DNA of 54,967 bases, taken from the NCBI GenBank assembly GCA_964367145.1, contig CAYIWJ010000001.1, positions 1 to 54,967 of the forward strand. Reading direction: 5' to 3'. Both the position numbers and the translations under genes were made by a program. This DNA is from an uncultured Candidatus Saccharibacteria bacterium (GTDB taxonomy: Bacteria > Patescibacteriota > Minisyncoccia > UBA6257 > 1-14-0-10-40-38). The notes under the pieces are model-generated. The model did not search any database, was not told the origin of the DNA, and saw only the letters and a program-made list of their open reading frames with translations. Shown here one piece after another: positions 6,209 through 54,840 of this stretch. The stretch's first letter is position 1; every line of letters begins with the position of its first letter.

Positions 6209-6212
6209 TAAT

Positions 6213-27370: not shown

Positions 27371-27468
27371 CCTAGATTAACCTAAAGTCGTGTACTGGAT
27401 GTTCCAGCGCACTTTCAGAACTTTGACAACTGAATTCCGGCAGTCGGAATTTAGAGGAGGTAGCTAGC

Positions 27469-28284
27469 ATGAAGATGCTGATCTGTGTGATCGTCGCGCT
27501 CGCGACGGTCGGCGTTTCCGCTTCTGCCCAGCAGGGCAAGAAAAAGCCGGCTCCCAAGAAAGACGTGGGGATCGAAGTTCCTCAGTCGAAGCCCGCCGAG
27601 GCGCTCGCTCCGATGGTGGACGATCAAGACCTGCGTCAGAAGACGGAGCAGTTCGAGAAGCTCATGGAGCCGTTCGAAAAGAACGGCACGGACATTCAGA
27701 AGGAACTCAACACCTTCCTCGATGAACGCAACAAGGCCGGAAGCATTGAGAACCTCACGCCCATGAGGATTTCCGAGCTCCAGATCCAACTGGGTCGGAT
27801 CGCCAAGAAGGCGCGTGAACAGATGACCTCCTTCGTCGAGAAGAAGAGGGAATTTGGTGATCTTCTCGTTGGATACGAGCGCAATAGCCAAGTTAGCGAG
27901 GTGAACGCGACTCGTGATCTCGAAGATGCCAAAAAGCTTCGCGCGCGCATCGAGGGCGATACCCTGATCAAGGACGACCCTGCTCAGCAGGCACTGCTTG
28001 CGGCGGTTGATGCGAACCTGTTCTCCCACAACGCGAGAATTCAATCCATTCGGACTTGGAATTCGGTGCGGGGATCGGTGAAAGAGCGCTCGGAAAAGCT
28101 TTTCGCGGTCGCGGGATACTGCGTGGAGATTCTCTCCGATTGCGAGAAGATTCTTCTTGAACCTTCAAACGTCGGTACCGCGCTCGCGCGACTCGAGGCT
28201 CACGTGTCCAATCTTCAGGCGTTCACCTTCAAGCTCGCCGAAGAGACGAAACGGATCGCCGGTTCGCTCGTGCCCAAGACTTGA
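27469..28284 (+). CDS. secreted alpha-helical protein P1, unknown function
   Basis: SD GAGGAGG (27454-27460), 8 nt upstream of the ATG. Signal peptide MKMLICVIVALATVGVSASA/QQ. 271 aa, K/E/L-rich. G/C-ending codon preference. Confidence 0.8.
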   Translation: MKMLICVIVALATVGVSASAQQGKKKPAPKKDVGIEVPQSKPAEALAPMVDDQDLRQKTEQFEKLMEPFEKNGTDIQKELNTFLDERNKAGSIENLTPMRISELQIQLGRIAKKAREQMTSFVEKKREFGDLLVGYERNSQVSEVNATRDLEDAKKLRARIEGDTLIKDDPAQQALLAAVDANLFSHNARIQSIRTWNSVRGSVKERSEKLFAVAGYCVEILSDCEKILLEPSNVGTALARLEAHVSNLQAFTFKLAEETKRIAGSLVPKT

Positions 28285-28313
28285 ATCACGCTTGCGCGTC
28301 GAGCAAGGCTCTC

Positions 28314-28343
28314 AACCCCAGCTCGTTGGAGCTGGGGTTTTCT
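28314..28343 (+). terminator. rho-independent terminator after P1
   Basis: ACCCCAGCTC (28315-28324) pairs with GAGCTGGGGT (28329-28338) around a GTTG loop, followed by TTTT. Confidence 0.75.
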
Positions 28344-28368
28344 ATAACCTCACCAAGGGAGAAGATGT

Positions 28369-28845
28369 ATGTTGTCTAAACGACTTGGTTGGCGCCAGAT
28401 TACTCTGGTTGGAATCTATCTTCTTGTTTCGGCGCTCGTTTCATGTGTTGATCCTGATAGAGTACCTCGTTTTAGGGAAAATTGGTCTGGGAAATGGGCT
28501 GGGGAGATAAGGGAAGTTGCTGACAGAACCACTCAAGAGTTTACTCTTGTCTTGGCGCTAGAAAAAGATCAGGTAAGTGGCTCCATGAGAGATGCAGATG
28601 GTTCGTTGGCCAACATTGCTGGATATATCAAGTTCATCGACAAGGAAAAAGTACCGTGGAAAAAGAAGTATGAGCTTGAGTTTATAAAAGATTACGGCAA
28701 TGGCATCAAGGTCAAATGGATCTCTAGCGGGATTGGTAGGGATGATTGTTGTATCGAGATTAATGGAACTTGGTGCAGAGAAGATGGTGAGGGAAGTGAG
28801 AAAACTATTGCGATGGGCACCTGGCGAATGTGGCCAGTAAAATAG
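28369..28845 (+). CDS. putative lipoprotein P2 with WSGKW/DxDGS/GxWRMW domain
   Basis: SD AAGGGAGA (28355-28362), 6 nt spacing. Lipobox LVS/C. 158 aa. Paralogue of P3 and of the P4 C-terminal half. Confidence 0.8.
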   Translation: MLSKRLGWRQITLVGIYLLVSALVSCVDPDRVPRFRENWSGKWAGEIREVADRTTQEFTLVLALEKDQVSGSMRDADGSLANIAGYIKFIDKEKVPWKKKYELEFIKDYGNGIKVKWISSGIGRDDCCIEINGTWCREDGEGSEKTIAMGTWRMWPVK

Positions 28846-28912
28846 CCACGATTCATTTTAGCCGATCATTTTTATCGCTCAATTTCCCTAGTCTTACCAA
28901 AGGGGGCGAAGA

Positions 28913-29485
28913 ATGAGACTCAATCAACCCAGTGTTTTCAAGATATTCTTTGGTATTCTTATTTTCTCGACGATGACCGCTTGTGACGGTACGGAAGATA
29001 AACACGAACTGGCTGAAGTCGCTGACAACAATAACGACAAGCCCGCTTCTTCTCCGGCAACCACCTTGAGTTCTAACACTGAAAGCGGTTGGTCTGGGAA
29101 ATGGGGCGGGGTGATGGAGGATGAAGTTAACCCCGATGGCATAATGAAGATTCAGGAATTTATTCTCCACTTGGACATAAAGGGCAGTAACGTAACTGGT
29201 TTCATGGAAGATCAGGACGGCTCACGGGCCGATGTATCCGGAAAGATTATATTTGTCGGTAAAGATCCTTTCGAACTAAGATTTGTAAAAGATTACCGCA
29301 ACGGCACAACCTTGTCTTGGTTTGCCGAAATCAGCAATTCAAATTTTAGTTCGTCGGGTCATGGTTACATCTTCGGCCATTGGCGTCGCGAAGAAGACAA
29401 AGAAAATGACATCAGTGCGGGAACTGGTGGTTGGTCAATGCGGTCTATCGATGATACTACCTTCCGGAATCACCAAAGGAGGTGA
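28913..29485 (+). CDS. putative lipoprotein P3 with WSGKW/DxDGS domain
   Basis: SD AAGGGGG (28900-28906), 6 nt spacing. Lipobox-like MTA/C. An S/T/N/P linker is followed by the paralogous domain. 190 aa. Confidence 0.8.
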   Translation: MRLNQPSVFKIFFGILIFSTMTACDGTEDKHELAEVADNNNDKPASSPATTLSSNTESGWSGKWGGVMEDEVNPDGIMKIQEFILHLDIKGSNVTGFMEDQDGSRADVSGKIIFVGKDPFELRFVKDYRNGTTLSWFAEISNSNFSSSGHGYIFGHWRREEDKENDISAGTGGWSMRSIDDTTFRNHQRR

Positions 29486-29488
29486 AAG

Positions 29489-30340
29489 ATGATGTTCTAC
29501 AGAATCAACTTCTCTCGGAACGTTTCGTTTGTGCTCTTCGTCTTCTTCGCCGCCGCAAATGTGTCAGCGCAGGAGGCGTCCATCAAGGACAAGCTTTCAG
29601 CCGCGAAGGAGGCAACGGTTCGCAAGTGCATCGAGCTTCGGGAGATGGCTAAAGAGGCCTATAACAAGGTCTTGAATGCCGCCGAAACCAAGTATCAAGA
29701 AATTGACCGATGGGTCAACGAGCGCGGCGGTTGGGAAAAGCTTTCGGGCCAGACCCTCCAGGATGTTAGGAAACAACTTGGCGTCGTCGCGAAAGAATCA
29801 ATCGAAAAGACGCGCGAAGTGACCGATGGTATTTTGGCAAAGGCGCAGAAGGATGCTCTCGAACTTGGCCCAGCCGCGCTCCTCGCAGTTGGAACCCCGC
29901 CCCAGAGCGAAAACCTGGATTTTAGACTCAATGATTCTGGCTGGTCCGGAAAGTGGGTTGGTTATTGGGACGATGCCACTACCTCCACCATGCAATGGTT
30001 CCACCTCATAATCAACGTCAACAAAGATTGCTCGGTCAGCGGGGTTATGAAGGATGCCGATGGCTCATTGGCAAATGTTTCGGGAAGCATCAAGTGGGTT
30101 GAGTGCACGCTAAAGGACCAATTTGGATTTCCCACTGGAGACGGCAAGTTTTGGGAAATCCAACTCCTGAAGAAATACCCCGAGAGCGGAGTCGAGGTAC
30201 GTTGGTCAGCTCAGCTGTCTCAAGACCGCAAGAGTTACCGCTTCCCAGAGATCATCAAGGGAACGTGGTGTCGAGTTGAAAAAGTGGATGCCGGCATCGT
30301 TCCAGACATGGGAGTCTGGCGAATGTGGCCCGTAAAGTAA
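29489..30340 (+). CDS. secreted protein P4: helical N-terminal module plus WSGKW/DxDGS/GxWRMW domain
   Basis: SD AAGGAGG (29476-29482), 6 nt spacing, overlapping the end of P3. Signal peptide ...FFAAANVSA/QE. 283 aa. The C-terminus GVWRMWPVK matches the P2 ending GTWRMWPVK at 8 of 9 residues. Confidence 0.82.
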   Translation: MMFYRINFSRNVSFVLFVFFAAANVSAQEASIKDKLSAAKEATVRKCIELREMAKEAYNKVLNAAETKYQEIDRWVNERGGWEKLSGQTLQDVRKQLGVVAKESIEKTREVTDGILAKAQKDALELGPAALLAVGTPPQSENLDFRLNDSGWSGKWVGYWDDATTSTMQWFHLIINVNKDCSVSGVMKDADGSLANVSGSIKWVECTLKDQFGFPTGDGKFWEIQLLKKYPESGVEVRWSAQLSQDRKSYRFPEIIKGTWCRVEKVDAGIVPDMGVWRMWPVK

Positions 30341-30354
30341 GTAGACAAGCAATC

Positions 30355-30387
30355 TGCCCCGCTATTTAGATAGCAGGGCATTTTTTT
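30355..30387 (+). terminator. rho-independent terminator closing the P2-P4 operon
   Basis: TGCCC.GCTAT / ATAGC.GGGCA stem (30355-30380) with a TTAG loop, followed by 7 T. uvrA ends convergently at 30397. Confidence 0.8.
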
Positions 30388-30396
30388 ATTCAAGAA

Positions 30397-32922
30397 TCAG
30401 ACCACCTTTCGCAGATATTCGCCCGTATAACTTCCTTTTTTGCGGGCAATCTCTTCTGGTGTGCCGGTCGCCACTATCGTTCCACCCTTGTTGCCCCCCT
30501 CGGGGCCTAGGTCAATCACCCAGTCGGCGGTTTTGATCACGTCCAAGTTGTGCTCAATCACCACAATCGTATTGCCGCGATCCACTAAACGCTGAAGTAC
30601 AATCAACAGATTTTCAATATCAGCAAAATGAAGCCCCGTTGTTGGCTCATCTAAAAGATAAAGCGTCTTGCGGGTATCGCGTTTGCCTAGCTCCGCCGAA
30701 AGTTTAATTCTTTGTGCCTCGCCCCCCGAAAGCGTCGTTGCCGATTGCCCCAACTCCAAATAACCCAATCCAACCTCGTTGAGAATTTTAAGCCGATCCT
30801 CCAGCCAGGGAATGTCGGCAAAGAAAGGCAGTGCTTCTTCCACCGTCATCCGCAAAACGTCATAGATATTTTTTCCCTTATATTCCACCGCTAAAGTTTC
30901 CCGATCAAATCTCTTGCCCTTGCATACGTCGCAAACCACATAGACCGTCGGCAAAAAGTGCATTTCAATCGCAATCGTGCCGTGTCCCTCGCAATGCTCA
31001 CATCGCCCGCCCGGCACGTTAAAACTAAACCGTCCTAGCTTATACCCTCGCACTCGCGCGTCTTCGGTGGAGCTGAATAGTTCGCGGATAAAAGTCCAGG
31101 CGCCGACATAAGTCGCCGGATTGGATCGTGGCGTCCTCCCGATGGGCGACTGATCAATGTTGATCACGCGGTTAATATATTCCAAGCCCGAAATTGACTT
31201 CACCGTGCCCGCCTTGTAATCCGAAAAATTAAATTTATTGGAGGCGGTTTTATAAAGCACGTCATAGACGAGCGTACTCTTGCCCGAACCGGAAACCCCG
31301 GTTACAGCCGTCAATCGCCGCAGGGGAATATCCACGTTTATTCCCCTTAGATTGTTTTCGGTCGCCCCGCGGATTTTTATATGCTCATGGTCTTTCTTAA
31401 TCTGTCGTCTCTTCTCCGGCACCGCGACTTTTTTGGTGCCGTTCAAAAAATCTATTGTCAGCGAACGGGGCATATTTTTCCCCGTGGTTTTATTGAGAAT
31501 CTGCGGAATCGGACCGGCCGCCACAATCTGGCCACCATGAATTCCGGCGCCAGGGCCAACGTCAACCAGATAATCGGAAGCGCGGATGGTTTCTTCGTCG
31601 TGTTCCACCACCAGCACCGTGTTTCCAAGATCGCGAAGTTCGTGCAGGGTTTTAATCAGTTTGGCGTTGTCCCGCTGATGCAAACCAATCGTCGGCTCAT
31701 CTAAAATATAAAGTGTCCCAACCAGCCGTGAACCAATCTGCGAAGCCAGCCTGATTCGCTGTGATTCACCGCCCGAGAGCGTCCCCGAGGCGCGTCCGAG
31801 TGTAAGATATTCAAAACCGACATTCATCAAAAACGCCAATCGGTTTTTGATTTCCTTGAGCGGCGCCTCGAGTACTCCGCCCAAGTTTTTATTTTCCAAA
31901 GTTAGTCCGCTAAAGAACTTCACCGCTTCTTCAATGGAAAAAGCGGTTATCGCCGCGATGCTTTTGTTTTTTATCAGAATATTTAGACTCTCGCGCTTCA
32001 AGCGGTTGCCGTTGCACGCCGGACAAACTTTTTCCGACCAAGCCTCTTCGGTGCCCAAACCATGACACTGTGCGCAAGCTCCAAAAGGACTGTTAAAAGA
32101 AAAAAGCCGCGGCTCAATTTCGGGAAAAGAAAATCCGTCTCGCGGGCAAGTGAACTTGGCCGACAAAGAAACCTCTCGGCCGTCATGAACGATTGTTACT
32201 ACATCGTTGCCGTACTTGAGCGCGCTCTCCACTGCTTCTGCCAAGCGAAGTCTATTTTCTGCCGTCTTAAAATCCAAAAGCGAGGGAATTCGATCCACCA
32301 CCAGATCAATCGTGTGCGTCTTATAGCGCGATAGCTCTATCCGGTTTCTCAAGGAGCTCATCACGCCATCAATTCTCGCCTCGCCAAATCCGGCGTTCAA
32401 AAAATCATAAAGCATCTGATAATATTCTCCCTTGCGTCCGCGCACCACTGGCGCGAATATCAGCAAGTTTTTGTCCGATCCACGATTCTCAATCAACTGC
32501 AGAACTGTATCCACGATTTCTTCTTTGGTTAGTTTGCGAATTTCCTGTCCACACTCCGGACAAAATGGAGTTCCGAGTCGAGCGAATAAAACCCGCAGAT
32601 AATCATAGATTTCGGTGATGGTCGCGACGGTGGAGCGGGGATTGCCCGATCGACTTTTCTGGTCAATGGAAATAGCCGGAGAAAGACCTTCAATTTCGTC
32701 CACATCCGGCTTGTCCAGTTTATCCAAAAATTGGCGGGCGTAAGCCGAGAGCGATTCCATGTATCGGCGCTGGCCCTCGGCAAAAATGGTATCAAACGCC
32801 AAGGATGATTTTCCGGAACCGGACAGTCCGGTAAAAACCACCATCTTGTCGCGCGGAATTTCTAAACTGATATTTTTCAGATTGTGTTCGCGCGCGCCTT
32901 TGATTTTAATTTTATCGTGCAT
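30397..32922 (-). CDS. uvrA: excinuclease ABC subunit A (841 aa, apparently without the insertion domain)
   Basis: Two ABC modules (Walker [10 protein letters not shown] and GVSGSGKST; LSGGE signature twice). Zinc modules present. Only 9 residues separate [10 protein letters not shown] from CPACNGNRL. Confidence 0.95.
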
Positions 32923-32933
32923 ATTTTGGTAAA

Positions 32934-34919: not shown

Positions 34920-35087
34920 AATAAGGAAATAGCTCCCCGCTCGGCGATAGAGGGGAGTATAGGGCGGATTATAACTCACTCAAATCCCAAAAGCCAGCGA
35001 AAAAAAAGTTTTCCACCGTTGACACAAACCGCCTCTGGAGCGATGCTAGAAAACGTGCGTCAGCTCTTTTAAAAGGGAGGTGACTTG

Positions 35088-35633
35088 ATGACTGTTATTG
35101 ACACGCTCAAATCAGCGATCAACGCCGAACGTCAGAAAAGGGACAAGATTCGTGAGATGCTCTCCGGAGTAAGAACTCTGGAAGACGCGGAGCTGTGTAC
35201 CGGTTTCGTCGTTCTCCACAATCATGTGACGCGCGCCGTGCGCAACGAGATGCTCAAGTTTTTCATCAGCGATACTTTGCGCGATGATCCCAAACGTTGG
35301 CAAGGATCGCTGGGATTCTATATGGAGCGTCTTTGGCACGATGGCCACGTTAAACTGGCCAAGCGTTGCGCCAAAGCCTTGATTGAAGAAGATGCGCGTT
35401 ACGAACGCTCCGACGGCACTAAGAAGGTGGTTTCTCTGTTTGCGATTTTTGGGCGTTGGAATGATCGGCCGGAAGACTTTGGTGTTGTAAAGCGTGTTCT
35501 CCTTAAGGCGCCTTGGATCAAGGCTCCGGTTTATCGAACCGCCGCCGCCTTAGTCTTAAAAGCGCCCTTCAAGTCCAAAAAAGAATATGTCGCCTGGTGT
35601 CTTAAAAAACGGCATCAAGCCAACGGCTCCTAA
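35088..35633 (+). CDS. orphan hypothetical protein (181 aa)
   Basis: SD GGGAGG (35075-35080), 7 nt upstream of ATG 35088. Followed by its own terminator. No recognisable motif. Confidence 0.7.
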   Translation: MTVIDTLKSAINAERQKRDKIREMLSGVRTLEDAELCTGFVVLHNHVTRAVRNEMLKFFISDTLRDDPKRWQGSLGFYMERLWHDGHVKLAKRCAKALIEEDARYERSDGTKKVVSLFAIFGRWNDRPEDFGVVKRVLLKAPWIKAPVYRTAAALVLKAPFKSKKEYVAWCLKKRHQANGS

Positions 35634-35634
35634 A

Positions 35635-35664
35635 ACCCTCCGCCAACTCGCGGAGGTTTTTTTA
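35635..35664 (+). terminator. rho-independent terminator after the 181-aa orphan
   Basis: CCTCCGC (35637-35643) pairs with GCGGAGG (35650-35656), followed by 7 T. bcp ends convergently here. Confidence 0.75.
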
Positions 35665-36138: not shown

Positions 36139-36212
36139 AAATTAATTTTAACACAATCTAAAACGACAAAAAAACCAGTCTAGCGACATTATTTGGCCAT
36201 AAAAATCCTCTA

Positions 36213-36242
36213 TTGACAAATAGAGAACTCCCATGTTATACT
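36213..36242 (+). promoter_or_regulatory. near-consensus sigma70-type promoter TTGACA-18 nt-TATACT
   Basis: -35 at 36213-36218 and -10 at 36237-36242, about 50 nt upstream of the TTG start at 36292. Confidence 0.6.
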
Positions 36243-36291
36243 CCGAGCAGTTCCTCGATTTTCAGGCATTTCTCATTTTAAGGAGCAGAAC

Positions 36292-36597
36292 TTGAGACAA
36301 CTCAAGCCTTCGTATGCCGAACTGGCCAAAATGGTGGCCGATCGGATGCGCGGTCCTTGTGGTCTTCTCTTCCGTCCAGCAGTCTTTACCGTGCTAAAGG
36401 AAAAATTTCTGGAGGCGGATCGGACCTACTTCGTGGAGATCGGCAAGATCCTCGGCGGGCGACGCAGGAATCCTCGACCGAAGATTCAACGTCAACGGGC
36501 CGAAGCGACAACGAACTCTTTCTCTTTTACTCGCTACGCTCGCGATGCGGAACGCGTCTGCCGCCTCCGGCGCGACGAACTTCTGCGTGATCCCTAA
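36292..36597 (+). CDS. orphan basic hypothetical protein (101 aa, TTG start)
   Basis: SD AAGGAG (36280-36285), 6 nt upstream of TTG 36292. Has its own promoter and terminator. Arg-rich. No recognisable motif. Confidence 0.6.
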   Translation: MRQLKPSYAELAKMVADRMRGPCGLLFRPAVFTVLKEKFLEADRTYFVEIGKILGGRRRNPRPKIQRQRAEATTNSFSFTRYARDAERVCRLRRDELLRDP

Positions 36598-36608
36598 CGC
36601 AGACCACC

Positions 36609-36637
36609 CCCCCGACTAACCATCGGGGGATTTTTTT
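36609..36637 (+). terminator. rho-independent terminator after the 101-aa orphan
   Basis: CCCCCGA (36609-36615) pairs with TCGGGGG (36623-36629), followed by 7 T. Confidence 0.8.
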
Positions 36638-36661
36638 ATTCCCCTTCTCGTAATTTTAGCC

Positions 36662-38466: not shown

Positions 38467-38502
38467 AATTTCCTACTTATAGCACGAGTTAGCGCCAGAG
38501 AG

Positions 38503-41033: not shown

Positions 41034-43133
41034 TTAAACCTGTTCGCCAAGCGGATCCGGACGATCATCAAAGTAACGTCTTTTTGCTAAATAGGCTACC
41101 GCGAGCAATAAGATAATCGTGAGCCACGGACTGGTAATAAAAGCGAGTAGGCTGGCTAAAGCTAGTGCCAGAGCACCCTCTCCAGTTGCAGCCCTAAAAG
41201 ATTCTTCGGAGCTAACACTCATCAGACTACCGGATTTTGCCACGGCGCGGAGGTAATAATCCTCGCCATTCTTTAAATTACTCAAAGTCACCGAATGATT
41301 TCGGCTTAAGTTGGTATTCTCGTCAGTCAAAAATTGGTAATTATAATTTTGATCTTTCCGATTGGAGTGAGACTCGGTGTCATAAATAACCCGCGAACGA
41401 GCCGGAATATCGGTTTCCCAACTGATAATTGCCTCGCCATTTTTTCGCGTTTCAACTTCCAGATTAGAAATCTGGGGCGCCGATTCCAAATTCTGTCGCG
41501 GGGTAACATCAACAATCGCATCGGCGTCAAGTACGCTTAGCGAAAAAGTTCTGGTAGTTTCGGCGTAGGTATCTGAAGCTCCAACTTTTATTTGGTAAGG
41601 ACGCGATCGTCCTTGAGACGATCCGGGCGTCCAAGTTAGGTCCCCAGTTCGACTATCAATCAACATGCCAGCCGGTCCCTCTATTAAACGATAGGTCACG
41701 GAATGGCCACTGCTCAACGCCTGAACGGTATAGAGATAAAAATTACCCTCGGTTATTACGAGCGGTGGGTTAAAGTTTAAGAAAGTCGGGCCATTGGTAG
41801 TCGGAGCATACACCGTTTGTCCGGTAACGGTTACCGTTACGCGCATATCGGTGCTGGAATATCCGTCACTTGCGCGGAATAACAGATCAGTGTTGCCAAT
41901 CTGATTATTATTTGGCCGCCAGCTAAAAAAGTTGTTATTGGGGGTGTATTCGGAGCCGGAAGGAACTTGAATCGCGGAGTAGGTAACTTGATTACCGTCC
42001 GGATCATTGGCCGAAAGCGAAAACTGCAAAAGTTGCCCCTGCTGAATCGTCTGACTGGGAACTTGGTTCCAAACCGGCGGACGGTTATAGGTGTTATTGT
42101 AGGTGTAGCCGGAAACATTAAAACCAACACTCATGTCGGCACTTGCGGTGCCGTCATAAGCTCGGAAAGTAATTGAAAAGAATCCCTGATTTTGCGGGGT
42201 CCAAGTAAAAAGTCGCGCGACCGGATCAAATGAAGCACCCGAAGGCAAGTTGATCACGCTATAACTGATCGGGAAATTGTGCCCGCTCGTTGCCGATAAG
42301 GTAAGACTCACAACTTGTCCAGCCGAAACGTTTTGCGTGGGAACCTGTTGCCAGAAAATTCCCTGGCCATAACCCGGATTGTAGTTATTATTTGCGACAG
42401 AGATTGTCACAGTCATGGTTGCGGTCTGAACGTTGTCAGAAGCTTTAAAAGCCACGGTAAAAGTACCGGATTGAGAACTTGTCGGCGTCCAAGAAAAAAG
42501 CCGAGTCACCGAATTAAAATTGGCGCCAGTTGGCAAGCTTTCCGCCGCGTAAGTAAGTACCTGACCCTCCGGATCGGTTGCTAAAACCGTAAATTGGATC
42601 GTCTGCCCGGTCGTCACATATTGTGTTGGAATCTGTCCCGACCAAACTGGGGCTAGGTTTTGAGTTGTTCCACCACCGCTCGTTGCCGAACAGATAACCA
42701 AGAGATTTTTCTCGTAAGCTATTTCACCGGCGTTAAAACGCAAAAAACCGTTTTGCGTGATCGTGGTATCGGCATCATTGGTGTACAAAAACGACTGAAT
42801 TAGGTTGGAAGACGAGTCGAGTAAATCAAAGCGCAGAGCATCTTGATTTTCATATCTACGATAACCCAAAATTTCACCGGCGCTGACTGGGATAGTTACC
42901 GTATTCGGCCAAGCTACATAATGATCCTGAATCTGTGGCAGATTAAAAATAGTGCTACCATTACGATCTTTTAAAATCGCATGGTCATCCGGACTCGGGG
43001 TGAAAAGTGGCAAATCTTGCGCGTAAATCAAAGTCTCGTTAGCGCAAGAATTGACATAACTCGCGGAAGCTAAATTAGTGCCGCCAACAAGCAGAATAAA
43101 GCTAAAAATCGTTATTAAGCCTAGTTTTTTCAT
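41034..43133 (-). CDS. large secreted, C-terminally anchored protein with four tandem Ig-like (He_PIG/cadherin-like) repeats and an FN3-like module
   Basis: Signal peptide ...GGTNLASA/SY. Four ~85-aa repeats of the type P.W..(I/V)P.Q.V..GQ...F.L.A.DP(D/E)G..(L/V)TY.....P.GA.F.......F.W.P. Then an FN3-like domain and a C-terminal TM. Confidence 0.8.
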   Translation of the reverse strand: MKKLGLITIFSFILLVGGTNLASASYVNSCANETLIYAQDLPLFTPSPDDHAILKDRNGSTIFNLPQIQDHYVAWPNTVTIPVSAGEILGYRRYENQDALRFDLLDSSSNLIQSFLYTNDADTTITQNGFLRFNAGEIAYEKNLLVICSATSGGGTTQNLAPVWSGQIPTQYVTTGQTIQFTVLATDPEGQVLTYAAESLPTGANFNSVTRLFSWTPTSSQSGTFTVAFKASDNVQTATMTVTISVANNNYNPGYGQGIFWQQVPTQNVSAGQVVSLTLSATSGHNFPISYSVINLPSGASFDPVARLFTWTPQNQGFFSITFRAYDGTASADMSVGFNVSGYTYNNTYNRPPVWNQVPSQTIQQGQLLQFSLSANDPDGNQVTYSAIQVPSGSEYTPNNNFFSWRPNNNQIGNTDLLFRASDGYSSTDMRVTVTVTGQTVYAPTTNGPTFLNFNPPLVITEGNFYLYTVQALSSGHSVTYRLIEGPAGMLIDSRTGDLTWTPGSSQGRSRPYQIKVGASDTYAETTRTFSLSVLDADAIVDVTPRQNLESAPQISNLEVETRKNGEAIISWETDIPARSRVIYDTESHSNRKDQNYNYQFLTDENTNLSRNHSVTLSNLKNGEDYYLRAVAKSGSLMSVSSEESFRAATGEGALALALASLLAFITSPWLTIILLLAVAYLAKRRYFDDRPDPLGEQV

Positions 43134-43206
43134 AAGTTTCTACATTATAATCTATCAATGATAAACTGTCAAGAAAACCCACAAACATTCCACTAAAGGA
43201 AGCCAA

Positions 43207-43626: not shown

Positions 43627-43660
43627 TTGATTATTTTAGCCCGTTAACGTCGGGTGAGCA

Positions 43661-45920: not shown

Positions 45921-45923
45921 ATA

Positions 45924-47222: not shown

Positions 47223-47281
47223 ACTGTGCTTTGCCCGCGATTCAAAACACCGAAGAAAACACCAGAATAAATAAAACCGAT

Positions 47282-48865: not shown

Positions 48866-48954
48866 GGCTAAATTAAGTTCTAAGAAAATAACAGATAACA
48901 AGGAAAAAAGCAAGTCTAAGGGCTAATCTCTCCATTTCTTTGTTGACTCTCCAA

Positions 48955-48983
48955 TAAAAAACCCGCATTTTTTCTGCGGGTTA
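48955..48983 (-). terminator. rho-independent terminator of the gam-like gene
   Basis: AACCCGCA (48960-48967) pairs with TGCGGGTT (48975-48982). On the minus strand it is followed by TTTTTTATT. Confidence 0.8.
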
Positions 48984-48989
48984 CTCAAA

Positions 48990-49559
48990 CTATTCTTCCT
49001 TGTCGGCATCCTTCTTGGCCTTCATGAACTTCTGTTTTTGCGGATCAATGCAAACTTCCGCTTCGTTGGTTTTCACAAAAAAGAGTTCCACGCCGGTCTT
49101 GATGGTTACGCCCTGAACGCTCTCCGCGAGTTCGGGGTTGGCAAGCATTGCGGCCTTGTTGACCTCAACCTTGCGGCGCAAGAAATCTTCCAGCTTTCGT
49201 CTTTCGCAAATTCCAATTACCTGCTCAACGTCTTTCAGTGAAACCGAGGGCGGATTGGTTCGCCAGCCAAAAGTTCCCGCCGGAATCTTGATGCTCTTTT
49301 CGTCCTTGACCAAGTCAGCGCGATTGCGTTCGGCGAATTCAGCCACCGAGAGAGAATCAAGAAGCATGTCCGCGTTGAATGGCTCTGCTTTTTCAACTGC
49401 CGCGGCTTGAAGCTTGGCGATCTCCTCATCAAGCTCAATGCGGATCGTGTCTAAAGCTCTCTGACTCGCGGCTATTTTTTCCAGTAAGGTGTTCGCCTCG
49501 TCGAGATTCTCAATCAGCGGGATTTTAATCCGCTTCGCTTCTGCTTTTTTTGGTGCCAC
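48990..49559 (-). CDS. gam: phage Mu Gam-like host-nuclease inhibitor (Ku-like DNA-end-binding) protein
   Basis: 189 aa, GTG start with AGGAG 6 nt upstream. Collinear with remembered Mu Gam features: N-terminal AKRIK, coiled region, NRADL, KSIK.P.GTFGWR.NPPSVS, EDFLRRK.EVNKAAML, GV.I..G.E.F. Confidence 0.85.
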   Translation of the reverse strand: MAPKKAEAKRIKIPLIENLDEANTLLEKIAASQRALDTIRIELDEEIAKLQAAAVEKAEPFNADMLLDSLSVAEFAERNRADLVKDEKSIKIPAGTFGWRTNPPSVSLKDVEQVIGICERRKLEDFLRRKVEVNKAAMLANPELAESVQGVTIKTGVELFFVKTNEAEVCIDPQKQKFMKAKKDADKEE

Positions 49560-49623
49560 CGAAAACTCCTGCTACATAGAAAGAACTTTCAGACTTGTCA
49601 GCGAAATGCCGACAGTCAAAAGA

Positions 49624-49653
49624 AATATAGTCTTTTTATCCGATATATGTCAA
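49624..49653 (-). promoter_or_regulatory. sigma70-type promoter TTGACA-18 nt-TATATT for the gam-like gene
   Basis: On the minus strand, -35 is at 49653-49648 and -10 at 49629-49624. Predicted 5' UTR is ~58 nt. Confidence 0.6.
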
Positions 49654-49664
49654 TAAGGAAAGTG

Positions 49665-50387
49665 TCAGCGAGAAGTTTTATCGGAGCGCAATTTTATGAC
49701 CCGCCAAAACGCCTCCAAGACTATTCCCAGACGAAACTTTGATCCGCCTCGCGCCCGCTCGGTAAAAATTATCGGAACTTCACCGACAGAAAAACCGGCG
49801 CGATGGCTTTTATAAACAGTCTCAATTTGGAAATTATATCCCAGCGAATCCAAAGGATGTGAAATCAGATTTTCCACAACCTCGCGCCGATAACACTTGA
49901 AGCCGCTCGTAAGATCACGGTAAGGCAAGTCAAGAACCAACCTCGCGTACCAGTTGCCGAAACGGCTGACTAATCGGCGAAAAAAATTCCAATGGCGAAT
50001 ACTCCCGCCCAAAACATATCGCGAGCCGATGACCACGTCATAATTTTGCGCCGCCGCAACCAGCTTCGGAATAGAATTTGGGTCATGCGACAAATCGGCA
50101 TCCATTTCCACGATCAAGGCTTTTTCTTCCGGCTTAAGTACGGAAAGTACATAACCAAATCCGTGAACATAGGCCGGTCCCAGCCCTTGCTTATTGGGTC
50201 GCCGCAATACCGTTATTGGGAAATCAGAATTCAATCCTTCGGCAACCCCCGCGGTGCAATCCGGAGAATTATCATCAACCACGATGAGTGATAACTCTGG
50301 TAAGCGCAAAGCAAAAATTTTTCTAGTCAGCTCGGCGATATTTTCCCGCTCGTTGTAGGTCGGGGTAACGACAAAAATTTTTGGCAT
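49665..50387 (-). CDS. family 2 glycosyltransferase, polyprenol-phosphate mannose synthase-like
   Basis: IFVVTPTYNEREN, LIVVDDNSPDCT, VEMDADLSHDP (Dpm1-type DAD). Start placed at MPKIF (50387). Confidence 0.88.
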   Translation of the reverse strand: MPKIFVVTPTYNERENIAELTRKIFALRLPELSLIVVDDNSPDCTAGVAEGLNSDFPITVLRRPNKQGLGPAYVHGFGYVLSVLKPEEKALIVEMDADLSHDPNSIPKLVAAAQNYDVVIGSRYVLGGSIRHWNFFRRLVSRFGNWYARLVLDLPYRDLTSGFKCYRREVVENLISHPLDSLGYNFQIETVYKSHRAGFSVGEVPIIFTERARGGSKFRLGIVLEAFWRVIKLRSDKTSR

Positions 50388-50397
50388 ACGGAAAGTC

Positions 50398-51516
50398 TTA
50401 GCCGAATGTAAAGGTAAATGCCCTAAGGCCAGGACTCTCAATGATTATTTCCAAAGTGTGCTCGCCGTAATCGTCGCCCTTGATCAATTTATAAAGACGC
50501 TCGGCTTGAATAGTTGCCCGGCTGTCGCTTTGATTAACATCCTCACCGGCTAAATTTCCCAGTGGCTGACCGTCGCGTAAAACTCGAATCGAAAGGGGAT
50601 TTTTGGAGCTGGCCACAAAATAAACATCTTTCGCCTGGTAGCGAAAAACAATTCTCCCCAACGTTTTATTCTCGGCATTCTCACCGGCAAAATCCCAAGT
50701 TCCGTCAAGATAAAGGATGTTGGTTTTGATACCCGTTGGCAACGAAAGTGTTTGCGCGCCGAACCATTCCGATTTTCCATTGCCCAAATAGGTATTTCTC
50801 GCCGACCCAAAATAAATTTCGGGGCTTTGAACTTTTGCCGCGTCAGTTTCCAGGATATTTTTCGGTGCCACCAGTTCCGCCGGTGCCGTAAATTGTGTTT
50901 TTAATCTTTCGGCGCGTTCCGCGAGCAGTTCTTGGATCTTCTTTTCGGTTTCGTCGTAGGCCCCCTCGCCGATGTGGTCGTAGACTATAAAGCCATCAAT
51001 ATCAATCAGATACTTCCTCGGCCAATAACGATTTCCGTAAGCCGTCCAGGTTTCATAGCGATTGTCCAAAAGTACCGGATATTGAATCCCGTATTTTTTC
51101 ACCGCTTGAGTTACGTTATTTAATTCTTGCTCAAACTTAAATTCCGGCGTATGAACTCCCACTATTTCCAAACCCTGATCTTTATATTTTTCATACCAGG
51201 CATTCAAATAGGGCAGTGTTCGTTGGCAATTGATGCAACTATAAGTCCAAAAATCCACCAAAATAACTTTCTTGCCGACGAGGTCAGCAAGTTTAAGTCC
51301 TGTAGTATTGATAAATCCCTGTGGGTTAACAATCTCATGGACTCGCCCGTAACGACTGGCTTTTTCCTTAGTGGTCATATTCTCAACCAAGGGCTTGATT
51401 GTAGTATCAGTCGGCGCATCCGCTTGGCTAGTCGGCGCAATTTTAGTTGACTGCAGATAAAAAATAGAGCCACCGATAAGAAGCAACGCCGCGATTAAAA
51501 TAAAATTGCGCGCCAT
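50398..51516 (-). CDS. membrane-anchored thioredoxin-like (TlpA/DipZ C-terminal type) protein
   Basis: N-terminal TM. Redoxin domain with FWTYSCINCQ (CxxC). A ~170-aa beta-rich C-terminal domain resembles that of DipZ-type proteins. Confidence 0.85.
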   Translation of the reverse strand: MARNFILIAALLLIGGSIFYLQSTKIAPTSQADAPTDTTIKPLVENMTTKEKASRYGRVHEIVNPQGFINTTGLKLADLVGKKVILVDFWTYSCINCQRTLPYLNAWYEKYKDQGLEIVGVHTPEFKFEQELNNVTQAVKKYGIQYPVLLDNRYETWTAYGNRYWPRKYLIDIDGFIVYDHIGEGAYDETEKKIQELLAERAERLKTQFTAPAELVAPKNILETDAAKVQSPEIYFGSARNTYLGNGKSEWFGAQTLSLPTGIKTNILYLDGTWDFAGENAENKTLGRIVFRYQAKDVYFVASSKNPLSIRVLRDGQPLGNLAGEDVNQSDSRATIQAERLYKLIKGDDYGEHTLEIIIESPGLRAFTFTFG

Positions 51517-51519
51517 AGA

Positions 51520-52230
51520 TTAGCGAAGTAAAAACTTGTTCAAGAGCTCAAAATTAGCGATTCGGTTTAAATTTTGAGTAAATACCAAAACGCCAAGGAT
51601 AATCAACAGAATGCCAAAAATTACGCTTGCCACATGAAGCGTCTTTCCGTAGCGCGCGATTATTCCCGAAGCACGATCGGCAAAAAAACCGATTACCAGA
51701 AAAGGGACTCCCAGCCCCAGGGCATACATCAAAAGTAGATACAGGGCCGTGCTCGGCTGACTTGCCGCTAGTCCCAAGATTGCTCCCAACGCCGCGCCGA
51801 CGCAGGGAGTCCAACCGGCGGCGAAGGCCGCGCCGAAAAGAGTTGAGGTCACCAAGCGTGATTTAAAACGCGAAGTCACGGCGATCTGGTGTTGACGCTC
51901 CAAAAAACCGATTTTCAAAAGTCCCGTTAGATACAATCCAAAAAAGATGATAATCGCGCCGCCGATTCTAGAAAGCCAGATTTGAGCGTCATAAGCCACG
52001 GATTCCAAGATGGTATTAAGCGCCACGCCGAGTAAGGCAAATACACCGGCAAATCCAAGCACAAAAAATAAACTGTTTAAAAAAATTGACCAGCGCTTGG
52101 ATCCGGCGTCTTTAGTAGACGCTCCGGCCAGATAAGCCAAAAATCCGGGAATAATTGGCAAAACACAGGGCGACAAAAAAGAAACGACTCCCGCAGTAAA
52201 AGCTATATAGAAGTTGATACTCCCATCCAT
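51520..52230 (-). CDS. ccdA: CcdA/DsbD-family thiol:disulfide electron-transfer membrane protein
   Basis: Six TM segments with the two conserved Cys motifs FLSPCVLPIIPGF and GWTPCVGAALG. Confidence 0.9.
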   Translation of the reverse strand: MDGSINFYIAFTAGVVSFLSPCVLPIIPGFLAYLAGASTKDAGSKRWSIFLNSLFFVLGFAGVFALLGVALNTILESVAYDAQIWLSRIGGAIIIFFGLYLTGLLKIGFLERQHQIAVTSRFKSRLVTSTLFGAAFAAGWTPCVGAALGAILGLAASQPSTALYLLLMYALGLGVPFLVIGFFADRASGIIARYGKTLHVASVIFGILLIILGVLVFTQNLNRIANFELLNKFLLR

Positions 52231-52260
52231 TCAACGATTATATCACAAAAAACCTCTTTA

Positions 52261-52872
52261 CTACTCCTTATTATTCTCCGACCGGTTGCGATAAAATTTG
52301 CGGTGAGCCACAACACTCATCCAAACACCAAGCGCTATCAGAAACGCCACAAACAGAGCGTGTCGCACGACTCGTAGTTCACTCAAAAGAAGCGCTAGTT
52401 GGCTCCCAAAATGATAGCCAAAAAAAATCAAAATCGGAGCGTAGATCAAGACCGCCAAGGCGTCATACCAAATAAATTTTCGCCAAGAAACACCAAGCGA
52501 CGCGGCCATTATGGGGCTCAAAAAACGCAGAGTTGGCACAAAGCGCAGGCCAAACACATATCGCCCCAAGTGATTTTTAGCTCTAGATTCATAGCGCTCA
52601 AGTCGCGTCGGACTTATTTTATTCTTAAAACGCTCAATAAATCTGGCTCCGTGCAAGCTCAAAAAGAAGATGATCCCGTCTCCCATAAGCAAACCAAGAA
52701 TACTGGCTAGAGTCATTAAGTGTGGATTACCAATCCCAAGCGAAGCCAGATACCCGATAGAAATCAACATAACCTCCTCGGGAATAGGGATCAAATAGCC
52801 GGTCAAAGTCACTCCGGTCAAAACAATCAGATATAACAGCCAGGCATTGGCAAAAAAGAAAGAAGCGTTCAT
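52261..52872 (-). CDS. DedA-family (SNARE-associated) membrane protein
   Basis: 203 aa. IPIPEE..L...G pattern, GR.V..LRF.P.LR. motif, about 5 TM segments. Confidence 0.8.
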   Translation of the reverse strand: MNASFFFANAWLLYLIVLTGVTLTGYLIPIPEEVMLISIGYLASLGIGNPHLMTLASILGLLMGDGIIFFLSLHGARFIERFKNKISPTRLERYESRAKNHLGRYVFGLRFVPTLRFLSPIMAASLGVSWRKFIWYDALAVLIYAPILIFFGYHFGSQLALLLSELRVVRHALFVAFLIALGVWMSVVAHRKFYRNRSENNKE

Positions 52873-52892
52873 CTAAATCTTATTTAGAGCGA

Positions 52893-53105
52893 CTAAGCAT
52901 CTTGTCCAATGTGCGGATTTTTCGGCAACACCAAAGTGGCTATGGCATAAACAACAATTTCAGGAACAAGGTGGGTAAAAAGAGTCAGCAAAATAAAACC
53001 CAGGCGCAGTAATACCGGATCAACGCCCCAATATTCTCCCAAGCCACCAAAAACTCCGGCTATCACCTTATTGTGCCTGCTTCTATAAAGTTTTTTCATA
53101 ATCAA
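52893..53105 (-). CDS. PspC-domain membrane protein
   Basis: LYRSRHNKVIAGVFGGLGEYWGVDPVLLRLGFILLTLF is a canonical PspC domain. 70 aa. Confidence 0.88.
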   Translation of the reverse strand: MIMKKLYRSRHNKVIAGVFGGLGEYWGVDPVLLRLGFILLTLFTHLVPEIVVYAIATLVLPKNPHIGQDA

Positions 53106-53155
53106 ACTAATTCTACCACGTCGCCCCGTGGGATAAAATAAACCACCTCGCTAGC

Positions 53156-53184
53156 TTGATCTTTACCCGTTTTATCGGTAAGAT
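53156..53184 (+). promoter_or_regulatory. candidate promoter TTGATC-17 nt-TAAGAT
   Basis: -35-like at 53156-53161 and -10-like at 53179-53184, about 50 nt upstream of ATG 53235. Confidence 0.45.
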
Positions 53185-53234
53185 ATTTCCGGATTGCGAA
53201 CCAGTCCTTTAAAAAGAGAAAAGGAGAGTCGGTT

Positions 53235-53933
53235 ATGAAAGATGGTCTGGCGCAAGCCCACGAAGAAGGCGTCATGATAGACAGAGACGATCTCGTCGCG
53301 ATCCTTAGGCTCCAACACCTTCGCTTGGTTAAAGAAAGAAAGTATCACATCAAGGGCGGTCTGGATAAAGCTTGGCTGGAAGATGAACTGAAGCGATTAG
53401 AACTCCAGCTGTCCATGCCGAATCCATTACCACTCAAAACAAGTCAAGTTCCGGCATTGCTGGTCGTAACCAAGGCCCATCTCACCATCCGCCAACTTCT
53501 TGCGGGAATCTCCGGTAAAAAATGGCATGCTGGCGAAGTCTCGTCAAGCGTTAATTTAGATTCTTTGGAATTGGAGAAAAAAATAGAAACTGGTCGCGGT
53601 ATTTACGCGATTGGTGATCTAAGGTCCGGACATGAATTGGGTGGGTTTTCTTTGTCCGAGGCCAAAGAAACTTTAAGCCGAGAATTCCGCCGCGGTCTGA
53701 CCGTGGAAGAAGCGATAGCCTTCCTAACGCACTTCCCAGAATTTTTTAGTTCCGGAGATGTCATAAAGTGTTTGTGTTCGCGGCATTCCGATCAGGAAGT
53801 GGAGAGTGCCGAGCCTAGCGTTGAGATCTGGATTTTAGGCCGATCGCCAACCCTTCGCGCCATAACCCATAGCGTCAGGGAAAGTTATAAGCGCGACATT
53901 TTTCCTTCCTGCAAAGACTCTCTCTTGTGGTAG
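53235..53933 (+). CDS. orphan hypothetical protein (232 aa)
   Basis: SD AAGGAG (53221-53226), 8 nt upstream of the ATG. Hairpin downstream. No recognisable motif. Confidence 0.7.
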   Translation: MKDGLAQAHEEGVMIDRDDLVAILRLQHLRLVKERKYHIKGGLDKAWLEDELKRLELQLSMPNPLPLKTSQVPALLVVTKAHLTIRQLLAGISGKKWHAGEVSSSVNLDSLELEKKIETGRGIYAIGDLRSGHELGGFSLSEAKETLSREFRRGLTVEEAIAFLTHFPEFFSSGDVIKCLCSRHSDQEVESAEPSVEIWILGRSPTLRAITHSVRESYKRDIFPSCKDSLLW

Positions 53934-53952
53934 TAAGCGAGACCATCAACCA

Positions 53953-53990
53953 AAACGCCCCGATTTTAATCGGGGCGTTAATATTTTTCA
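53953..53990 (+). terminator. probable terminator hairpin after the 232-aa orphan
   Basis: 10-bp stem ACGCCCCGAT (53955-53964) / ATCGGGGCGT (53969-53978) with a TTTA loop. The T-tract is interrupted (TAATATTTTT). Confidence 0.55.
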
Positions 53991-54004
53991 GTCACGCCAA
54001 AAAA

Positions 54005-54226
54005 CTAACAACAGGTACAACGTCGCTCGTTCAGTTTTGTTAGACCGGCGATGCCCACCAAAATCGGCCAGGTAATGGAAACCGTCCGAGCTTCCACGAC
54101 CTCAAAAGCGCCCAACAAGAAGACGATGGCAAAAAGCACCATTAAAAAGGGGATTACCGAATGGTGTTTACAGACGCACTTCATACCCGAATCTTTTTTA
54201 ATTTCATCCATAGTTAAATTATCCAA
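54005..54226 (-). CDS. small Cys-rich membrane protein
   Basis: 73 aa or shorter from internal Met codons. CVCKHH ... two hydrophobic segments ... RRCTCC at the C-terminus. No SD. Confidence 0.45.
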   Translation of the reverse strand: MDNLTMDEIKKDSGMKCVCKHHSVIPFLMVLFAIVFLLGAFEVVEARTVSITWPILVGIAGLTKLNERRCTCC

Positions 54227-54291
54227 AATAAAGCGCGACCTTTAGTCCATCTACTGCGTAATAATTTTGTGTAGTAGATCTATAGTATACC

Positions 54292-54323
54292 AGAAATAAA
54301 AAAGCGGACACCAAGGTGTCCGC
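54292..54323 (-). terminator. rho-independent terminator of the 145-aa orphan
   Basis: GCGGACAC (54304-54311) pairs with GTGTCCGC (54316-54323). On the minus strand it is followed by TTTTTTATTT. Confidence 0.7.
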
Positions 54324-54332
54324 GAAAAAGCG

Positions 54333-54770
54333 CTAAACCAACTCAACTTGCCAATCAGGATTTTTCATGCGCTCCACAACCGCTTCGGGGTTGATGTGTT
54401 CGCCGTAAGCAAGCGGCACAAAGAGCTCAAAATTCCGCGAGCCAAGTTCCGGTTGTCGCAGTCTGGGGCAGAGCTTGTAAATTGCGGCCGGCAATAGACC
54501 TTGAATTTGAGTCATGTCGGGACAGGACATGTGTTCACCAAGCGACAGCCAAACCTCGCCGCCCATGGTAACAATCACCGTTCTGCCGTTGTGATGATGC
54601 CAAGAACCGCGCCAAGTCTCCGGCAGGAACTCACCAATCGTATACTCGCGTCCGCGAACATTCTTTAGCGGCAAACCGGTGGCGTGAAAAAAACCAGCCA
54701 ATTTCAGCAGTTGACGCTCAAAAGACGTTGTCTTTTGCCTACTCGACACTGTCTCATTCTCCGCGCTCAT
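54333..54770 (-). CDS. orphan hypothetical protein (145 aa)
   Basis: Start placed at MSAENE (54770) because GGAGGA (54782-54777 on the minus strand) lies 6 nt upstream. The longer ORF to 54869 would run through a terminator and promoter. No recognisable motif. Confidence 0.65.
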   Translation of the reverse strand: MSAENETVSSRQKTTSFERQLLKLAGFFHATGLPLKNVRGREYTIGEFLPETWRGSWHHHNGRTVIVTMGGEVWLSLGEHMSCPDMTQIQGLLPAAIYKLCPRLRQPELGSRNFELFVPLAYGEHINPEAVVERMKNPDWQVELV

Positions 54771-54840
54771 CAGTAATCCTCCAAAAAAGGTTTTCAACGA
54801 ACTAGAAATAAAAAGATAGCAAAATAAGTTTAAAAGGTCA

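Follow-up and report, generated by a model that had tools for sequence, protein, structure and literature searches.

Shine-Dalgarno-led accessory genes in the chromosome of a Parcubacterium-like organism whose 16S rRNA lacks the anti-Shine-Dalgarno sequence

The window analyzed here is a 54,967-nt stretch of DNA (contig CAYIWJ010000001.1 of assembly GCA_964367145.1, forward strand), ~55 kb of one genome, in which nine open reading frames (ORFs) are led by strong Shine-Dalgarno (SD) sequences and in which the 3' end of the 16S rRNA gene lacks the complementary anti-SD. We think it fairly probable that these nine ORFs constitute six horizontally acquired accessory units, of differing ages, in the chromosome of a Parcubacterium that is otherwise free of SD and anti-SD, and that they are translated independently of SD pairing. 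The evidence supports import of all nine, and supports their being recent relics for one unit only, a four-gene cassette lodged between uvrA and uvrC.

The 16S 3' end and two classes of translational start

The last 54 nt of a 16S rRNA gene lie at the edge of the window (positions 1..54, plus strand; Rfam RF00177, SSU_rRNA_bacteria, positions 1480-1533, E = 1.3e-8 in a permissive Rfam search). The tail reads GGAUCAAUUAAACU in place of GGAUCACCUCCUUU and contains no CCUCC: past the conserved GGAUCA, the window has AUUAAACU where the consensus of the Rfam alignment has CCUCCUUU, and inspection of the 350 nt beyond the 16S end turned up no CCTCC. The original prediction that this 16S lacks an anti-SD is thus confirmed for the inspected copy. 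(Anti-SD status is judged on a single rRNA copy, the one in the window; in this copy, the complementary tail that canonical SD-led initiation requires is absent.) The adjoining trailer (~52-95) is predicted to fold as a hairpin, the 5' arm of which, UUUCUCACCUUGC (60-74), is similar to canonical UCACCUCCUU without its UCC; the 3' arm contains AGGAGA. The 16S is unlinked to a 23S gene, since the next gene past it encodes a response regulator and neither a 23S nor a tRNA gene follows there; no complete RNA gene was found in the window with Rfam at gathering thresholds or with ARAGORN. The SD-less gene of ribosomal protein bS21 (12608-12823) is followed by the genes of YqeY and of YbeY, a 16S 3'-end maturation endoribonuclease (12608-13735 for the group); bS21 and YbeY both bear on how so atypical a 16S 3' end is produced and positioned.

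Among GTDB species representatives and public metagenomes, the nearest UvrA and UvrB proteins are those of Candidatus Wolfebacteria (76% and 71% identity, respectively), followed by Colwellbacteria (69%), and identical or near-identical contigs are found in assemblies from the Hainich H43 groundwater well. By best match rather than by phylogeny, the organism is a Wolfebacteria-like Parcubacterium (candidate phyla radiation (CPR)/Patescibacteria). According to the available text of Tsurumaki et al. 2022 (PMC9297842), a Parcubacteria subgroup without anti-SD is already on record, the motif being detected in only 48% of Parcubacteria, and its absence co-occurs with loss of ribosomal protein uL1; the available text of Nikolaeva et al. 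2020 (PMC7782861) documents anti-SD loss in reduced genomes in general. Both traits of this subgroup that were tested are found here, a 16S without CCUCCU and, by best match, a Parcubacteria/CPR affiliation, and the anti-SD-less background is real yet already known. Lim 2012 and Amin 2018, known here through papers that cite them, reportedly also deal with anti-SD loss.

SD strength was scored as the hybridization energy of positions -20..-1 upstream of the start to ACCUCCUUA for the 54 called genes of the window. Nine genes score from -6.9 to -13.3 kcal/mol, and the other 45 at -6.4 kcal/mol or weaker, mostly near 0. Random 20-mers drawn from the window reach energies of -8 kcal/mol or lower in 2.3% of cases; 8 of the 54 genes do so (binomial p = 3e-5), which rules out chance as the source of the excess. 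All nine genes have a GGAGG-type motif within the canonical SD region (~5-10 nt), at a spacing of 6-8 nt by motif boundaries or 4-10 nt counted from the 5-mer cores, and every motif was found at its predicted place:

27454-27460, plus strand: GAGGAGG, SD of gene 27469
28355-28362, plus strand: AAGGGAGA, SD of gene 28369
28900-28906, plus strand: AAGGGGG, SD of gene 28913
29476-29485, plus strand: AAGGAGGTGA, SD of gene 29489
35075-35083, plus strand: GGGAGGTGA, SD of gene 35088
36280-36285, plus strand: AAGGAG, SD of gene 36292
49566-49570, minus strand: AGGAG, SD of gene 49559 (Gam)
53221-53226, plus strand: AAGGAG, SD of gene 53235 (DUF5701)
54777-54782, minus strand: GGAGGA, SD of gene 54770

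The SD-less background against which these were said to stand out is also borne out, in that no core gene in the window (Pth, LepB, HisRS, HIT, YqeY, FtsA, FtsZ, PilB, PilC, pilins, Tgt, UvrA/B/C, Nfo, Dus, bS21, YbeY) has an SD; the six small genes added to the set (encoding bS21, YbeY, a PspC-like protein, a PF02594 member, a LiaF-like membrane peptide and a pilin; 60 genes in total) have none either.

Host leaders are 68% A+T, with affinity for the canonical anti-SD if anything depleted, and host start regions are unstructured (mean minimum free energy (MFE) -7.0 kcal/mol for -30..+30, vs. -11.4 kcal/mol for internal 60-mers). The start regions of the nine SD genes are intermediate (mean MFE -9.8 kcal/mol; p = 0.04 vs. 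host) and are therefore not tuned to the SD-independent mode of the host. A replacement SD co-evolved with the altered 16S tail was considered and rejected: host leaders pair with the real tail at -1.80 kcal/mol, and controls at -1.69 and -1.77 kcal/mol. In about eight host genes that stand first in their operons, a TATAAT-like box lies 5-11 nt ahead of the ATG (leaders in the others are 18-49 nt long and SD-less), a placement of the -10 box which implies that the mRNAs of these operons are leaderless or nearly so:

17311, 17923, 24941, 36138, 40937, 43133, 43626, 52230, all minus strand: host starts with a TATAAT-like -10 box 5-11 nt upstream, several of them extended (TG)

A like arrangement (TATAAT+6 and TATACT+7, at 9868 and 10319) is found in L087, the one useful relative recovered by a second metagenome scan, made with UvrB. 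The claim that host genes show at most a -10 box fails for gene 41034-43133, whose full TTGACA-17-TATAAT promoter suggests that the host polymerase reads -35 boxes. Some 14 nt ahead of its start codon, the uvrB leader (34920-35000, minus strand) has a GC-rich hairpin (CCCC...GGGG), and a sister species retains this hairpin with different loop and stem bases (L084, 1420-1500).

Six units with their own signals

The nine SD genes form six transcription units, one four-gene secreted-protein cassette and five solitary monocistronic genes. As separate motifs the nine stand; as independent cases they do not, since three of them (28369, 28913, 29489) are paralogs with paralogous leaders, which leaves about six units. 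TTGAC[AC] is found within 150 nt upstream of 5 of the 6 SD units and of 3 of 51 host genes (Fisher p = 8e-5), and an intrinsic terminator ends every unit (within ~25 nt of the stop in the solitary genes), so that the TTGACA-type -35 boxes and private terminators of the original prediction are there. Four solitary genes (36292, Gam, 54770 and 35088) have a consensus-like promoter or TTGACA box and a leader of ~35-60 nt; over all units, leaders measure 35-95 nt. Possession of a promoter and terminator of their own is a trait that the units share with phage morons; location within a prophage is not, their neighbors being housekeeping genes. The solitary units comprise the following features:

35088-35633, plus strand: Unit X, 181-aa orphan gene (unit span 35019..35656)
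35019-35024, plus strand: TTGACA -35 box of Unit X
35637-35656, plus strand: terminator of Unit X
36292-36597, plus strand: Unit Y, Arg-rich 101-aa orphan, TTG start (unit span 36213..36629)
36213-36242, plus strand: promoter of Unit Y, TTGACA-18-TATACT
36609-36629, plus strand: terminator of Unit Y
49559-48990, minus strand: Gam, homologue of phage Mu Gam, GTG start (Pfam PF07352, PHROG 491; unit span 48960..49653)
49653-49624, minus strand: promoter of Gam, TTGACA-18-TATATT
48982-48960, minus strand: terminator of Gam
53235-53933, plus strand: DUF5701 gene (Pfam PF18959, E = 6.8e-11; unit span 53221..53979)
53954-53979, plus strand: terminator of the DUF5701 unit, which has no clear -35 box
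54770-54333, minus strand: Unit 9, 145-aa orphan (unit span 54304..54841)
54841-54813, minus strand: promoter of Unit 9, TTGACC-17-TATCTT
54323-54304, minus strand: terminator of Unit 9
54874-54845, minus strand: terminator insulating Unit 9 upstream

The composition of the nine genes is atypical. Fit to host codon usage is 0.005 on average, vs. 0.075 for host genes (Mann-Whitney p = 4e-5), which answers the codon-usage outlier check that had been proposed; G+C content at third codon positions (GC3) is 0.56 vs. 0.48 (p = 0.004), and overall GC 0.51 vs. 0.47. It had been held that GC content alone does not separate the two classes; GC3 and codon usage do separate them on average, with overlap of individual genes.

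The products of the nine were also searched against family libraries (Pfam, PHROGs, PADLOC, NCBIfam). Only Gam and the 53235 product (DUF5701) have a significant family match, and seven of the nine have none, so that the claim that all but Gam are unrecognizable orphans needs to be amended for one gene. PADLOC and NCBIfam yielded no match for any of the nine, and PHROGs matched Gam only. Among host proteins, 42 of 46 match a Pfam family (Fisher p = 5e-5 for the contrast with the SD genes); several host orphans are SD-less, and orphan status alone therefore does not track SD presence. The match of Gam to PF07352 is strong (E = 4.5e-29; 101.8 bits, curated threshold 28.3; positions 2-148 of the 149-position profile; PHROG 491, E = 1e-33). 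Identity to the Gam proteins of Mu-like phages is only 32-33%, and IMG/VR scans with Gam, DUF5701, 54770 and X found no relatives, which lends no support to the suggested phage origin; a plasmid search with DUF5701 likewise found no match. The predicted structure of X (pLDDT 51) offers no usable fold.

The case for insertion is clearest for the cassette and the divergent gene next to it:

27454..28284, plus strand: cassette gene 1, 271-aa secreted helical protein, SD GAGGAGG, GC3 0.71 (from SD energy, codon data and a homologue at locus L082)
28314-28339: hairpin 3' of gene 1
28355..28845, plus strand: gene 2, 158-aa lipoprotein with the common beta-barrel domain, SD AAGGGAGA
28900..29485, plus strand: gene 3, 190-aa lipoprotein paralog, SD AAGGGGG
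29476..30340, plus strand: gene 4, 283-aa protein combining a helical N-domain with the beta-barrel domain, SD AAGGAGGTGA
30355..30380: hairpin terminator common to the cassette and convergent uvrA
26519..27247, minus strand: TrmB-family regulator gene, no SD, host-like codon usage (Pfam PF01978, E = 2.2e-12)
27369-27341, minus strand: promoter of the TrmB gene, TTGACA-17-TACACT (promoter scan)
27354..27369: perfect palindrome TTGACATAAATGTCAA between the divergent TrmB gene and cassette, with two face-to-face -35 hexamers

In the sister species the gene order is ...586 aa - PF02594 - uvrC - uvrA - uvrB - [181 aa] - ahpC - [96 aa] - nfo - dus, with a 13-nt gap between uvrC and uvrA; this gap is 51 nt in the Patescibacteria locus L006, and the two genes are close in other Parcubacteria. 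The window has 3.9 kb, the TrmB gene and the cassette, between uvrA and uvrC. Since uvrC and uvrA adjoin in the sister species, the cassette is an insertion specific to this lineage, and comparison of gene order supports a recent 3.9-kb event that included the TrmB gene. Insertions at the uvrB/uvrA/uvrC junctions vary among Wolfebacteria-like genomes (L002, L003, L004, L087); in L087, uvrB and uvrA are separated by three unrelated genes, and uvrA and uvrC by two ORFs (3289-6592 and 9103-10300).

All four cassette products have signal peptides and two have a lipobox (by eye). Genes 28369, 28913 and 29489 share a ~130-aa C-terminal domain (WSGKW...GTWRMWPVK; BLASTP E = 1e-13 to 1e-21), and paralogy extends to the leaders in the case of genes 3 and 4. 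Gene 3 carries a C-terminal extension (its paralogs end in WRMWPVK, without one), and its last codons, CAA AGG AGG TGA, are the gene 4 SD, AAGGAGGTGA (29465-29492); with the preceding A, this becomes AAAGGAGGTGA, 11 nt that we take, from known tail sequences, to be complementary to the canonical 16S tail. The shared domain is modeled as an eight-stranded barrel (pLDDT 78.5). Its best PDB matches are avidins (TM 0.55-0.68), weak ones (E at least 1.8e-3, 13-16% identity), and the avidin-like barrel is a lead at the level of predicted fold only. A word-indexed search of 5.8 billion proteins matched the cassette protein only to itself, and a profile search of 1.84 billion representatives retrieved only the three paralogs and two remote homologues (P0006 and P0007), which lie on short contigs of 65% and 56% GC; in one of the two, GGAGGA stands 7 nt ahead of the start codon, and upstream of the other lies a gene homologous to cassette gene 1 (L082). 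The palindrome TTGACATAAATGTCAA is possibly an operator for the adjacent regulator.

The contig is metagenome-assembled and one start, that of 36292, is in doubt (101 aa from the SD-led TTG, 88 aa from the internal ATG of the ENA gene call, 96 aa in the sister-species gene), so that chance motifs, wrong starts or a chimera of CPR and SD-using organisms might be thought to have created the nine cases. This is scarcely credible. Besides the binomial excess of SD already cited, CPR genes flank each SD unit on both sides, X adjoins uvrB in a second species too, and the junctions tgt..uvrC-TrmB-cassette, cassette-uvrA and uvrB-X-AhpC-Y-Nfo recur, at identities of at least 99.6%, in separate Hainich H43 assemblies and in a Logan assembly. 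Chimeric assembly is rejected on the grounds that the junctions are recovered in independent assemblies of the same population. Adjacent to Unit 9, 54845-54967 (minus strand) is the GC-rich 3' end of a gene leaving the window, whose stop overlaps the strong terminator hairpin 54874-54845; this gene, which runs off at 54967, may be a further foreign unit.

Conservation of a start region, age and translation

Gene 35088 has an orthologue in the sister species (P0010; 82% aa identity, same position next to uvrB). Conservation of signals was compared for this gene and in this one species pair, by way of the 2.3 kb Logan contig L084. (A metagenome scan with the gene 35088 alignment found no match.) The gene has diverged to the same extent as uvrB (76.6% vs. 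76.7% nt identity by blastn), with 47% of four-fold degenerate sites identical in 35088 (70 sites) and 51% in uvrB (190 sites). Two blocks of the 168/261-nt spacer are retained at 100%: AAAAAAAGTTTTCCACCGTTGACAC, 25 nt that include the -35 box, and GGAGGTGACTTG, which immediately precedes the ATG. Between these blocks the spacer is scrambled and has a 59-nt indel; the lone difference near the SD block is G/A and keeps its SD character. At the neutral identity of ~0.5 that the four-fold sites imply, 12 consecutive matches at a preset place would have a probability of ~2e-4. Retention of these signals at 100%, while four-fold sites are only ~50% identical, argues for purifying selection on the signals rather than for a leftover that has not yet decayed. 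On this comparison, the SD-containing start region of 35088 is under purifying selection, and the gene is not a recent import. Conservation of its SD block has several candidate explanations: a constraint on start regions in general, pairing with a cryptic partner, or binding of a regulator.

These observations separate import from recency. The original prediction made all nine genes recent imports from SD-using donors: import is upheld by composition, orphan status and the insertion of the cassette, and recency does not extend to all nine, 35088 being shared with the sister species. Absence from the same site in relatives holds for the cassette; it does not hold for 35088 and probably not for 36292, since a 96-aa gene occupies the corresponding position between ahpC and nfo in the sister species, and 36292 was probably also acquired before the two species split. 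Vertical conservation across the clade had been named as the observation that would count against import, and it came out divided, 35088 being shared with one sister species and the cassette being absent there. The same facts bear on the notion that the nine are old, vertically inherited, lineage-specific genes whose ancestral SD predates loss of the anti-SD. The presence of 35088 in the sister species, and its codon usage near that of the host (0.05 vs. 0.075), fit such a history. The atypical codon usage and GC3 of the nine and the absence of the cassette from the sister species do not, and the Wolfebacteria/Colwellbacteria loci L001, L002 and L087 (8-21 kb each around the uvr genes) contain no match to any of the nine. 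These loci are SD-poor, and SD-less leaders common to their lineages make anti-SD loss much older than the nine genes; moreover, core genes, under the strongest selection, have lost all SDs, and there is no reason for orphans alone to have kept them. We regard vertical inheritance as highly improbable.

A different question is whether the ribosome still pairs with these SDs, by way of an extended or alternatively processed 16S tail (trailer segment 60-74, UUUCUCACCUUGC), a second 16S with CCUCC or another C-rich rRNA, so that they would serve a separate initiation channel. The SD/start block of 35088, 100% conserved against ~50% neutral identity, is what functional SDs would lead one to expect; the mean pairing energy with the trailer segment is -8.6 kcal/mol for the leaders of the nine (host leaders, -3.5 kcal/mol), and the start regions of the nine, more structured than those of the host, seem to need help. 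The nine fit canonical CCUCC far better, however (-11.9 kcal/mol), the trailer segment is predicted to be buried in its hairpin, CPR genomes usually have one rRNA operon, and a usable anti-SD is hard to square with the fact that no core gene uses an SD. Pairing of this kind seems unlikely to us, and a mature 16S 3' end near GGAUCAAUUAAA would exclude the cryptic anti-SD at 60-74. In a broader form of this proposal, the SD leaders of acquired genes would be actively maintained and read by some reader other than CCUCC, either an anti-SD-like 16S segment that is cryptic or a protein factor, constituting a separate and possibly regulated channel apart from the leaderless/unstructured mode of core genes; we rate this as rather unlikely.

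Alternatively, the GGAGG blocks may be kept for a role outside translation, as the site of a regulatory protein or small RNA or as part of a leader structure, their likeness to SDs being inherited from the donor and incidental. Conservation in one orthologue pair would be compatible with this, as would the operator-like palindrome and adjacent regulator gene of the cassette and the placement of the gene 4 SD within TCACC-AAAGGA-GGTGA, a potential 5-bp hairpin (by eye). What the nine genes share, on the other hand, is only the SD core at its canonical spacing of 6-8 nt, the signature of a translational signal; no common motif was seen beyond it, and no Rfam family matches in the window at gathering thresholds. 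A purely non-translational role is accordingly distinctly unlikely.

Under the reading that we favor, of six units acquired from SD-using organisms at different times, each would have brought its own kit of -35/-10 promoter, leader, GGAGG-type SD and intrinsic terminator, 35088 and probably 36292 ahead of the split from the sister species, and the cassette with the TrmB gene as a late arrival between uvrA and uvrC. Transcription of each unit would start at its own promoter, by the host sigma-70 polymerase. Translation would not involve SD/anti-SD pairing and would follow the SD-independent route of the host, the 30S subunit loading on a purine/A-rich, weakly structured start region of which the SD block would be retained as a working part, not for pairing with 16S.

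Several points weigh against this reading. No donor lineage was identified for any unit, and no mobility genes, flanking repeats or tRNA target were found in scans of the window for tRNA, of the cassette borders and of the neighbors; the cassette borders, specifically, showed no boundary repeats, terminal repeats, target-site duplication or integrase. The TrmB gene in the inserted segment is without SD and host-like in composition, so the segment may be a mosaic. The SD dichotomy covers 55 kb of the genome, SD conservation of 35088 covers one species pair, and the SD-less state of the sister species is read from its uvrB leader, not from its 16S. In uvrB, too, a 10-nt pyrimidine block adjoining the start, TTTCCTTATT, is conserved, and block conservation in 35088 may reflect a general constraint on start regions rather than the SD motif.

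Relation to known systems and significance

The anti-SD-less Parcubacteria and reduced genomes (PMC9297842, PMC7782861) resemble the present organism in their 16S tail without CCUCC, in their CPR/Parcubacteria lineage and in that SD helices are presumed not to form; the available text of these papers describes the rRNA and does not mention a minority of strong-SD genes. Neither that text nor full-text literature searches yielded an account of a lineage without anti-SD in which a minority of accessory genes is led by conserved SDs. Genes with a strong SD (AAGGAG/AGGAG, canonically spaced) turn up now and then in other SD-poor Parcubacteria-like loci, several of them encoding secreted proteins, lipoproteins or orphans:

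L005, 9183-9833, minus strand: strong-SD gene
L156, 3009-3482: strong-SD gene
L011, 6670-7227, minus strand: strong-SD gene
L105, 9289-9921: strong-SD gene
L008, 8618-8908 and 8922-9203: strong-SD genes

These hint that an SD-led minority may be general among such loci, whose character is known from their genes and not from their 16S.

The closest functional analogy is found in the Bacteroidia, whose ribosomes are SD-blind (the anti-SD is present but sequestered) and in which a rare strong SD on rpsU (bS21) serves autoregulation (PMC7797042, PMC9976891, PMC13000453). The two systems have in common a nearly SD-free genome, unstructured A-rich leaders and a handful of SD genes. They differ in that the anti-SD is absent here, bS21 is SD-less and the SD genes are foreign orphans, whereas the SD gene of the Bacteroidia is a core gene. 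Phage morons and acquired islets are self-contained, with their own promoter and terminator. Morons were reportedly described by Hendrix and colleagues, and amelioration of transferred genes by Lawrence & Ochman. The units described here are like morons and islets in being solitary genes with private promoter and terminator, in atypical composition, in presence or absence between close relatives and in including one protein of a phage family (Gam); they are unlike them in lacking a prophage context and mobility genes, and in that their mark is a translation signal that the recipient should not read. Amelioration does not describe Unit X, which has kept its SD past saturation of synonymous sites. 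Initiation on leaderless mRNA is known in Actinobacteria, Deinococcus and archaea; the likeness to these, in the -10 box 5-11 nt before the ATG of host genes, is known here from sequence and concerns the background genes, not the nine.

Loss of the anti-SD is usually seen as the endpoint of abandoning SD-dependent initiation; here, a sharp contrast between SD-led and SD-less genes exists within one 55 kb. In the CPR, where most genes are orphans, detection of horizontal transfer by composition is weak, and in such lineages a strong SD may serve to flag horizontally acquired genes cheaply and from sequence alone. The conserved SD of 35088 makes the role of an SD on an anti-SD-less ribosome testable with natural sequences; if it matters for expression, there would be a route of SD recognition without the canonical 16S tail.

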